Shown: positions 47,188 through 48,244 of the stretch, piece after piece
Position numbering within the stretch: the stretch's first letter is position 1
Layout of the letters: every line of letters starts with the position of its first letter
NCBI GenBank assembly: GCA_039816045.1
Contig: JBCBYB010000009.1
Location: forward strand, 55,791-119,790
Reading direction: 5' to 3'
From: Pseudomonadota bacterium
GTDB taxonomy: Bacteria > Pseudomonadota > Alphaproteobacteria > Rhodobacterales > Rhodobacteraceae
Length of the DNA: 64,000 nucleotides
The notes under the pieces: model-generated
Databases searched by the model: none
Seen by the model: only the letters and a program-made list of their open reading frames with translations
Told to the model about the DNA's origin: nothing
Made by a program: the position numbers and the translations under genes

Positions 47188-47229
47188 ATATAGCAGAAAC
47201 AGGTGTTTACAGGTTAAGCCGATGTTAAC
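47188..47229 (-). promoter_or_regulatory. Putative CtrA-activated promoter of the tra operon
   Basis: On the traL strand: TTAAC-ATCGGC-TTAAC (perfect TTAA-N7-TTAAC, 47229-47213) overlapping the -35 position, a 17-nt spacer, then CTATAT -10 (47193-47188). Confidence 0.7.
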
Positions 47230-47371
47230 ATGAAGGCTCTAGAAACGGCTGAATACTGTAAACAAATTCGACGTTCTGTTAACACGCACAATCGCGCCCT
47301 TCGGCGCTCGAGCGCCGTCACACGTGACGTCTCGATAAGCCGTCGTTGCGTCGGCTTTGCTCTGCCTTCTA

Positions 47372-48244
47372 ATGGGAACAGGCAGAAAAACGAGCCGGCC
47401 GGCGGGGCGAGGAGGAGGTCCCGGCGGTCCGGTCAAGACGGGGGCGTGCGTGGAGTTCGGGTACTTCCGGTATCTCCGACAGGAGGGCGAAGGCGCCTTC
47501 GAGCGCCTCCATGGCGCGCTCCGCGCTGCCGGGATCGACGAGACCCGCATCTTCGGCGATGCCATCGTCATGCCGGGCGACCGGGTCTTCGAGCTCTGGG
47601 ACTGCATCGAGGCGCTCGGCACGGGCGACGTCCTGGTCTTCGCCTGCAGCTTCTCGCTCGCGCCCGAGATCCGCGGCCTCCGCAAGCTCGTGACCCGGAT
47701 CGAGCGGCAGGGCGCGAGCGCCGCGGTGCTCGATGCCCGCGGGAAGCGGCAGCCGCTCGCGCTCAAGGCTGGATGGTTGGCCGAGGCGATGGGGTTCCTC
47801 GAGGACTGGGAGGCGCGGCGCCGGGCTTGCGAGAAGCTCCTCGTCCGCCATGGCGACAAGCCGCGACTCGTGCGGCCGCGATGGGTGACAGCGGCCCCGA
47901 CGCTCGCCGAACCTTCCCCTTCAAAGCCATCGAAGGAGCGGCAGGCGCGCGAGCCGAAACCGAAGACGCGGGTCTGGACTGCGGAGATGCTCGCCTATGC
48001 CTACGACAAGCGGCACCGTTCCTCGATGCCGGTCGAGGATATCTGCGATGCGCTGCGCACCTCCGAGGCGGATTACGCGACTTATCTCGACGCTGGCGGC
48101 GAGCTTACCCATGCGGCGCTCGAGATCCTGAGGGCGGCGGCCGAGGCCGATGGCTGCCCCGACGAGGCACCGCTCGAGGTGCTCCGGCGACAGCCGCTCC
48201 GGCACCGGGTGCTCTCGCGCTTCAGGCGGAAGGGCGAGCGCTAG
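47372..48244 (+). CDS. Resolvase-fold protein lacking catalytic residues, with C-terminal HTH-like region
   Basis: FGYFRYL, RIFGD and LWDCIEALGTGDVLVFACSFSLA align with resolvase GYARVS/ED/L..L..GDVLVV.RLDRL, but Ser and Asp-Arg are replaced; start uncertain (47372 or 47450). Confidence 0.7.
   Translation: MGTGRKTSRPAGRGGGPGGPVKTGACVEFGYFRYLRQEGEGAFERLHGALRAAGIDETRIFGDAIVMPGDRVFELWDCIEALGTGDVLVFACSFSLAPEIRGLRKLVTRIERQGASAAVLDARGKRQPLALKAGWLAEAMGFLEDWEARRRACEKLLVRHGDKPRLVRPRWVTAAPTLAEPSPSKPSKERQAREPKPKTRVWTAEMLAYAYDKRHRSSMPVEDICDALRTSEADYATYLDAGGELTHAALEILRAAAEADGCPDEAPLEVLRRQPLRHRVLSRFRRKGER

Follow-up and report, generated by a model that had tools for sequence, protein, structure and literature searches.

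Organisation of the locus

We analysed a 64-kb window (64,000 nt) of contig JBCBYB010000009.1, from the ~5-Mb genome of a member of the Rhodobacteraceae (assembly GCA_039816045.1), and focused on a gene that diverges from traL, the first gene of a conjugation block encoding an F-type type IV secretion system (T4SS). The gene encodes a homologue of small serine recombinases in which five of eight conserved active-site residues, including the nucleophile, are replaced. It lies between traL and an FlhC-like gene, on the strand opposite to both. Coordinates are those of the window unless a related locus is named.

47450..48244, plus strand: gene for the small serine recombinase homologue lacking catalytic residues, most likely 264 amino acids (aa) from a GTG start
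46838..47116, minus strand: traL, first gene of the traL-E-K-B-V... F-type T4SS block
48222..49076, minus strand: FlhC-like gene, 284 aa, on the traL strand and convergent with the resolvase-like gene, with a 23-nt overlap

The open frame of the resolvase-like gene spans 47357 (TTG) to 48244 on the plus strand; its upstream stretch is open in this copy alone. Because four of the five related loci aligned there have an in-frame TGA at the position of window 47408-47410, where the window reads CGA, and because gene callers begin every homologue at MEFGYFRYL, the real start is most likely the GTG at 47450.

Six known loci, mostly metagenomic, carry the gene, and it diverges from traL in every one with enough flanking sequence. 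It is single-copy in its own genome. No close homologue was found in 60 related genomes, 36 of them from the same genus, where the weak matches inspected were ordinary resolvases. Among 1.8 billion representative proteins, the family forms one cluster at 50% identity.

Homology to small serine recombinases

Searches of Pfam, NCBIfam, PHROGs and PDB sequences gave no resolvase match for the open reading frame (ORF); the Pfam Resolvase model did not match it at E ≤ 1, and the Pfam HTH_7 model was likewise silent. The initial annotation had described a recognisable resolvase fold with a C-terminal segment resembling a helix-turn-helix (HTH), and profile-profile comparison, which we treat as the decisive test, bore this out. 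By hhalign against 33 small serine recombinases, residues 1-233 align with the whole enzyme, including its C-terminal HTH, over 206 columns (Prob 97.9%, E 3.4e-13). Taken by domain, the N-terminal residues 1-109 align at Prob 97.5% and E 6.7e-12, and the C-terminal part, compared by itself, finds the HTH of these enzymes at E 6.3e-5 and Prob 64.5%.

Weaker signals agree with this alignment in register. A phmmer search of the 1.8 billion representatives returned one PF00239 protein (E 5e-5), and a profile of the family matches a Tn3-type TnpR of a same-genus genome (E 3.5e-5). By BLASTP, the ORF matches the intact resolvase of the window, encoded 35 kb away at 11943, with GDVLVFACSFSLAPEIRGL aligned to GDVLVVARLDRLARSLSHL (34% identity over 64 residues, E 0.009; ~26% identity in a multiple alignment). 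Against plasmids in PLSDB, tblastn gave sub-significant matches (E 0.1-1), yet all 20 of the 20 listed are recombinase or transposase genes, with alignments starting at residue 1; blastn with the locus found no match there.

An AlphaFold model built from a 123-sequence alignment that included resolvases has a mean pLDDT of 75, with confident catalytic and HTH domains joined by a disordered linker; the three HTH helices are all above 88. By Foldseek, the top matches of this model are γδ/Tn3 resolvase, Gin and Sin (1gdt, 2gm5, 3uj3, 2r0q), with TM scores of 0.74-0.80 on γδ resolvase catalytic domains for the model from this resolvase-rich alignment. As judged by alignment, the ORF is confirmed as a full-length homologue of small serine recombinases, with a predicted catalytic domain, E helix and C-terminal HTH.

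47450..47848, plus strand: residues 1-133, resolvase-type catalytic domain and E helix (hhalign; model pLDDT ~85-94 for residues 1-100)
47849..47977, plus strand: residues 134-176, Pro/Lys-rich linker, ~30 aa longer than in resolvases
47978..48241, plus strand: residues 177-264, three-helix HTH aligned to resolvase HTH_7, followed by a helical extension and a basic tail (hhalign E 6e-5; pLDDT 79-95 for residues 171-250)

Loss of catalytic residues and retention by selection

Two motif changes relative to the intact enzyme at 11943 had been pointed out in the initial annotation, and both are present as described: GYARVS reads GYFRYL (residues 4-9), and RLDRLAR reads CSFSLAP (residues 66-72). 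We compared eight pocket positions, in Tn3 numbering, with 119 relatives, among which conservation at these positions is 95-100%. The residues of the relatives and of the ORF family, the latter the same in all six copies, are as follows.

Y6: Tyr in relatives, Tyr in the ORF family
R8: Arg in relatives, Arg in the ORF family
S10, the nucleophile: Ser in relatives (113 of 119), Leu (Leu9) in the ORF family
D36: Asp in relatives, Asp in the ORF family
R45: Arg in relatives, Val in the ORF family
D67: Asp in relatives, Phe in the ORF family
R68: Arg in relatives, Ser in the ORF family
R71: Arg in relatives, Pro in the ORF family

Six residues crucial for Tn3 resolvase activity have been listed (PMC2794168). 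Mutation of S10, R68 or R71 greatly lowers cleavage and recombination by Tn3 resolvase, and no active-site mutation strongly inhibits binding to site I (PMC2794168). Because five pocket residues are replaced and because Tn3 mutants behave in this way, recombination by the known serine-recombinase mechanism is excluded for the predicted protein, and by analogy its DNA binding need not have suffered.

Purifying selection clearly acts on the gene: at dS ~0.3-0.4, the pairwise dN/dS (ω) is 0.15-0.21, which leads us to reject a pseudogene. By region, ω is 0.14-0.17 for the domain that has lost its catalytic residues and 0.10-0.21 for the HTH and tail; the linker begins with an invariant HGDKPRLVRPRW, and as a whole it is the least constrained part (ω 0.22-0.44). 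The frame is open in all six loci. The initial annotation had called for a check of dN/dS and of synteny with traL, and both came out in favour of a maintained gene.

Outside its own family, the closest sequence relative of the ORF is a Pin-like recombinase (P0005, locus L022, 6001-6693). Otherwise ordinary, this protein also carries Leu in place of the nucleophile, with K and Y substituting for R8 and R68, respectively. Its gene lies on a metagenomic conjugative element, with TraU and TraG_N nearby and a methyltransferase-like gene on its 3' side.

Paired boxes in the divergent intergenic region

The intergenic region contains four boxes that the initial annotation had noted at 47204, 47223, 47257 and 47277. 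We find TGTWWACA at these four positions and nowhere else in the window (0.14 expected), and no further box appears in the tra block when one mismatch or any central dinucleotide is allowed. The paired pattern is unique in the 5-Mb genome. Across related loci, 31 of 32 box columns are invariant, compared with 83 of 141 neighbouring columns (Fisher p 6.5e-6), and the sixth locus holds the same four boxes. The four-box pattern was absent from 185,579 species genomes scanned; in JGI metagenomes, it matched unrelated tandem repeats only. Nothing credible in the region was returned by Rfam. The features of the region, unstranded except where a strand is given, are:

47204..47230: site A, box 1 TGTTTACA and box 2 TGTTAACA, TGT-N21-ACA, 27 bp
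47257..47284: site B, box 3 TGTAAACA and box 4 TGTTAACA, TGT-N22-ACA, 28 bp
47184..47193, minus strand: block reading CTATATTTCT on the traL strand, candidate -10 of PtraL, invariant over 47184-47192, with A at 47193 in locus L001
47214..47229: TTAA-N7-TTAAC, a perfect match to a CtrA-type box, overlapping box 2
47316..47329: palindrome CGTCAC-NN-GTGACG in the ORF leader, arms conserved in five aligned loci

The boxes form two pairs, 27 and 28 bp long, with inverted TGT...ACA ends and with centres 53.5 bp apart, between divergent genes; similar single boxes also occur in a cousin element without the gene, described below. Site A brackets a candidate, weak -35 of the traL promoter (47217-47212), 18 nt 5' of a conserved CTATAT. 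Site B coincides with the sole sigma-70-like match of the region, which reads on the traL strand (-35 TTAACA, 16 nt, -10 TACAGT). In oligonucleotides used with Tn3 resolvase, res site III takes the form TGT-N19-ACA, 25 bp, and resolvase sites owe their geometry to the distance between the two HTH motifs (PMC9943657).

One box does overlap a CtrA-type site, as the initial annotation had remarked, and the note had gone on to suggest competition with this host cell-cycle regulator. The overlap is real in the window copy, where the match is perfect; the full CtrA-type box, however, occurs in only one of the six related loci, that of the window. In the other five, the upstream TTAA half is CCAA or TCAA (GGCCAAG, GCTCAAG or GCCCAAG), and the downstream TTAAC half is part of the conserved box 2. 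On this comparison the full site looks like a two-base change peculiar to the window copy, and we reject competition with CtrA as a general feature. That the protein competes or cooperates with CtrA at the traL promoter is very unlikely, although the replicon type is found in Rhodobacterales and other alphaproteobacteria.

Several smaller features lie in or near this region. The 60 nt before the GTG start (47390-47449) are more conserved than synonymous sites and contain GAGGAGGAGG ~30 nt 5' of the start, too distant for a normal ribosome-binding site. A second palindrome, GGCGCTCGAGCGCC (47303-47316), adjoins the CGTCAC-NN-GTGACG palindrome. In the cousin locus L029, the stop codon that closes the FlhC-like reading frame is followed by a near-identical GC palindrome (1883-1897), a weak match that 66 of 2000 shuffles equalled; the GC palindrome near 47303-47329 may mark an old gene end. 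The 12-nt sequence AAACAGGTGTTT is common to window 47197-47208, where it overlaps box 1, and to the tnpR-tnpA res region of a Tn3-type transposon in a same-genus genome (L006, 744-755). The identity, a possible trace of res origin, is weakly significant (15 of 2000 shuffles), and we do not use it as evidence.

The conjugation block, its cousin and the FlhC-like neighbour

The F-type conjugation block runs on the minus strand from traL through traE, traK, traB, traV, traC, traN, traF and traH to traG at ~25.8 kb (25852-47116). At 38% identity, the closest relatives of its TraE are encoded by plasmids of the IncA/C and similar MOBH/MPF_F types. The genome yielded no match to the MOBH relaxase family (PF07514), and none of the window proteins scanned was recognised as a relaxase. 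The window also carries an RPA-type replication initiator, ParA and the intact resolvase (11943-12884), and plasmids similar to this replicon occur in Phaeobacter, Paracoccus and other alphaproteobacteria. In the window (25852-47116, minus strand) and in L001, the tra gene order (traL-E-K-B-V, a small gene, a DsbC-like gene, traC, an S26 peptidase gene, traW...), together with the similarity of TraE, points to the SXT/R391-IncA/C group.

A cousin T4SS, whose TraE is 51% identical (loci L029 and L030), has no resolvase-like gene. There, traL is immediately preceded, on the same strand, by a homologue of the 284-aa ORF of the window (31% identity, E 1e-17; L029, 1084-1878). The 289-nt spacer upstream of traL in the cousin holds two TGTNNACA boxes, TGTACACA and TGTGTACA, which are unpaired, inverted 9-mers 101 bp apart; the chance of two or more such boxes in this spacer is ~0.0013. 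The pairing itself is lineage-specific: only where the resolvase-like gene is present does each of two asymmetric boxes have a further, palindromic TGTTAACA box at a distance of 19-20 bp. No relatives of TraE were found in 400 genomes of the class or in the species-genome collection, and none of the 284-aa protein in 400 genomes of the order.

A five-sequence profile of the 284-aa family matches structures of FlhC (E 0.0013 and 0.0018). The homologue in the cousin matches Pfam FlhC at E 0.0048, below threshold at 17 bits against a cut-off of 27. The window protein alone has no Pfam, NCBIfam, PDB or plasmid match. Taken together, these profile matches suggest weakly but consistently that the family is FlhC-like. 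In SXT/IncC elements, the FlhCD-like activators SetCD or AcaCD activate PtraL from the -35 region, and the published motifs of SetCD, AcaCD and FlhCD are unlike one another (PMC4542580). Because the resolvase-like gene of the window separates the FlhC-like gene from traL, runs on the strand opposite to these two and extends 23 nt into the end of the FlhC-like gene, it has the appearance of having been inserted into an older unit of activator and traL.

A proposed TnpR-like regulator without chemistry, and alternatives

We give about an even chance to the reading in which a TnpR-like regulator without chemistry occupies both box pairs and represses its own promoter and that of traL, perhaps in competition with the FlhC-like activator. 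A whole small serine recombinase has lost its nucleophile and four other pocket residues; it would no longer cut and rejoin DNA and would have been retained by selection as a dimeric DNA-binding protein. It would occupy dimer sites in the divergent intergenic region as TnpR does at res, minus recombination, and would thereby control, probably repress, the two promoters. Its likeliest targets would be the two box pairs (47204-47230 and 47257-47284), both overlapping candidate promoter elements, and it is at shared boxes that the protein might meet the FlhC-like activator. A precedent is TnpR itself, which acts from res as a repressor of the divergent promoters of tnpA and tnpR (PMC7157771). The exaptation proposed in the initial annotation, of a recombinase turned transcriptional regulator or architectural factor of conjugation, holds as far as descent and maintenance are concerned: the gene descends from a recombinase, its product lacks the residues for serine-recombinase chemistry, its predicted dimerisation helix and HTH are kept, it is under selection and it stays beside traL. 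The assignment of the boxes to this protein is weakened by the cousin.

Several points weigh against our preferred interpretation. We infer the DNA binding of the protein, its target sites and the sign of its regulation, and the promoter positions are consensus matches. Because all six loci are close relatives in one shallow clade (88-91% protein identity among the four sequences compared), the co-occurrence of gene and box pairs amounts essentially to one observation. The TGTNNACA motif is not exclusive to the resolvase-like protein, since the cousin without the gene has two such boxes upstream of traL, and the motif may be recognised by the FlhC-like protein, which both elements encode, or be part of the promoter. 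The structural match is in part circular, because the alignment behind the model is dominated by resolvases; given the family alone (four near-identical sequences), AlphaFold failed, with a pLDDT of 44.

The cousin is also the starting point of the alternative that we take most seriously, though we consider it somewhat unlikely: the TGTNNACA boxes would be sites of the FlhC-like protein (ORF 48222-49076), a class II activator of the SetC/AcaC type, or elements of PtraL, and the resolvase homologue would work in another way, by binding the CGTCAC-NN-GTGACG palindrome, by anti-activation or by convergent transcription that runs into the gene of the activator. In both L029 and L030 the FlhC-like gene immediately precedes traL and two boxes are present, without any resolvase homologue (P 0.0013), the 284-aa profile matches FlhC structures, and the T4SS is nearest to the IncA/C-SXT type, in which SetCD or AcaCD activates PtraL at the -35 (PMC4542580). 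Box 3 with its flank resembles the proximal box of the cousin (TTTGT-T/G-TACAG), and boxes 3 and 4 coincide with -10 and -35 matches. Yet the FlhC similarity lies under curated thresholds, and no FlhD-like partner was identified, though no search was aimed at one; the differing motifs of SetCD, AcaCD and FlhCD give no tie between FlhC-like proteins and TGTNNACA, and the box cores differ between window and cousin (WW versus GT/AC). Moreover, the 27/28-bp pairs with resolvase-site geometry occur only in the lineage with the resolvase-like gene, and the boxes are absent from the rest of the tra block, where an activator of many promoters should have further sites unless the block is a single operon. 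If the protein does bind the box pairs, it might instead activate, in the manner of a class II factor on a weak PtraL -35, or bend or loop the control region as an architectural factor. Activation would suit the location of site A, which lies across a -35 of low quality (TTAACC, TTGGCC or TTGAGC) that is 18 nt away from CTATAT, related SXT/IncC tra promoters need activators bound at the -35 (PMC4542580), and resolvase dimers strongly bend DNA at their sites (PMC9943657). Repression is, however, the sole regulatory function characterised for a resolvase bound to its own sites (PMC7157771), and both hexamers of the best promoter match fall within site B, where a repressor would usually sit; we rate activation or an architectural role as unlikely.

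A decaying, functionless relic of a transposon resolvase, or an active recombinase with unusual chemistry, is extremely improbable. The loss of catalytic residues and the presence of a truncated resolvase elsewhere in the window (53933-54538) would fit decay, but the intact frame in six loci and the low ω, which extends to the domain without catalytic residues, do not; activity is opposed by the hydrophobic or small side chains now present at five pocket positions, which include the nucleophile and two catalytically crucial arginines. A more elaborate proposal, to which we give little credence, is that a recombinase relic became part of a two-gene conjugation switch. A res-like higher-order architecture would be preserved, with two dimer sites spaced like sites I and II of Tn3, and a looped or supercoil-sensitive repressosome would form over the traL promoter; the gene, inserted antisense between the FlhC-like activator gene and traL, would cause transcriptional collision with the activator, and repressosome and collision together would make transfer bistable.

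Comparison with known systems

The centres of sites A and B, 53.5 bp apart, invite comparison with Tn3 res, whose sites I and II are 53 bp apart. Like Tn3/γδ TnpR, the predicted protein has a catalytic domain, E helix, flexible linker and C-terminal HTH, in the same fold and order. As with TnpR at res, its gene diverges from the gene that it would control, candidate dimer sites lie in the shared intergenic region, and the candidate sites and those of res have the common form TGT-N(19-28)-ACA. Unlike TnpR, it lacks the nucleophile serine, R45, D67, R68 and R71, its linker is ~30 aa longer and it has an extra C-terminal helical/basic extension; sequence identity to resolvases is ~23-27%, and the Pfam Resolvase model fails to pick it up. 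The locus has two candidate sites in place of the three of Tn3 res and has no transposase partner, the neighbouring operon being a conjugation system.

At accessory sites, resolvase is purely architectural, and S10A subunits at sites II or III still support recombination (PMC9943657), which makes a resolvase without chemistry a functional DNA-binding and DNA-bending module. In accessory-site systems (res II/III, Sin site II), however, such subunits serve the reaction at site I, whereas the present locus shows no evident crossover site or active partner. Because catalysis-free resolvase subunits and TnpR repression of divergent promoters are already known, a regulator of the kind proposed here would by analogy be a variation on a known principle.

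The window resembles SXT/R391 and IncA/C elements in gene order (traL-E-K-B-V..., dsbC-traC-...) and in TraE (38% identity), and it has an FlhC-like gene near traL. The SetR/SetCD and Acr1-Acr2/AcaCD systems combine an FlhC-type activator with a separate negative regulator (PMC4542580), a logic that the putative regulator pair of the window would share. The repressors of SXT/IncC elements are the λ cI-like SetR or Acr1/Acr2, whereas the candidate in the window is resolvase-derived. In the two gammaproteobacterial relatives that we inspected, an Azotobacter plasmid and the IncA plasmid pRA1, no resolvase-like gene lies beside traL. Nuclease-dead enzymes of mobile elements also serve as regulators in other settings, as with the TnpB-derived TldR and the homing-endonuclease-derived WhiA. 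These are likewise DNA cutters that lost catalysis and kept sequence-specific binding; their folds and mechanisms differ, and the comparison is conceptual.

If our preferred interpretation is correct, the gene would be a clear natural example of a recombinase turned transcription factor at the head of a conjugation operon. It would also be a new type of regulator for SXT/IncC-like transfer systems, whose relatives spread drug resistance in other bacteria. Because the family is very small, with six near-identical loci in one cluster among 1.8 billion representatives, its general importance would be limited unless the mechanism proves unusual.

Neighbouring features

The convergent 23-nt overlap between the resolvase-like and FlhC-like genes (48222-48244) is identical in L001, L002 and L031. 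As no terminator-like site was found between the two genes, convergent transcription is possible. Beyond the FlhC-like gene, the cargo beside the regulator pair differs between copies, with Xre-RES toxin-antitoxin genes in the window (49250-50400) and L002, and a TerB, BrxC-D, helicase and SbcCD-like defence set in L001 (12078-20786) and L031; the FlhC-like gene therefore marks the limit of the conserved backbone. The truncated resolvase at 53933-54538 (minus strand) matches Pfam Resolvase positions 58-144 only, and the N-terminal part with the active serine is absent; in contrast to the intact gene beside traL, it is a true relic.

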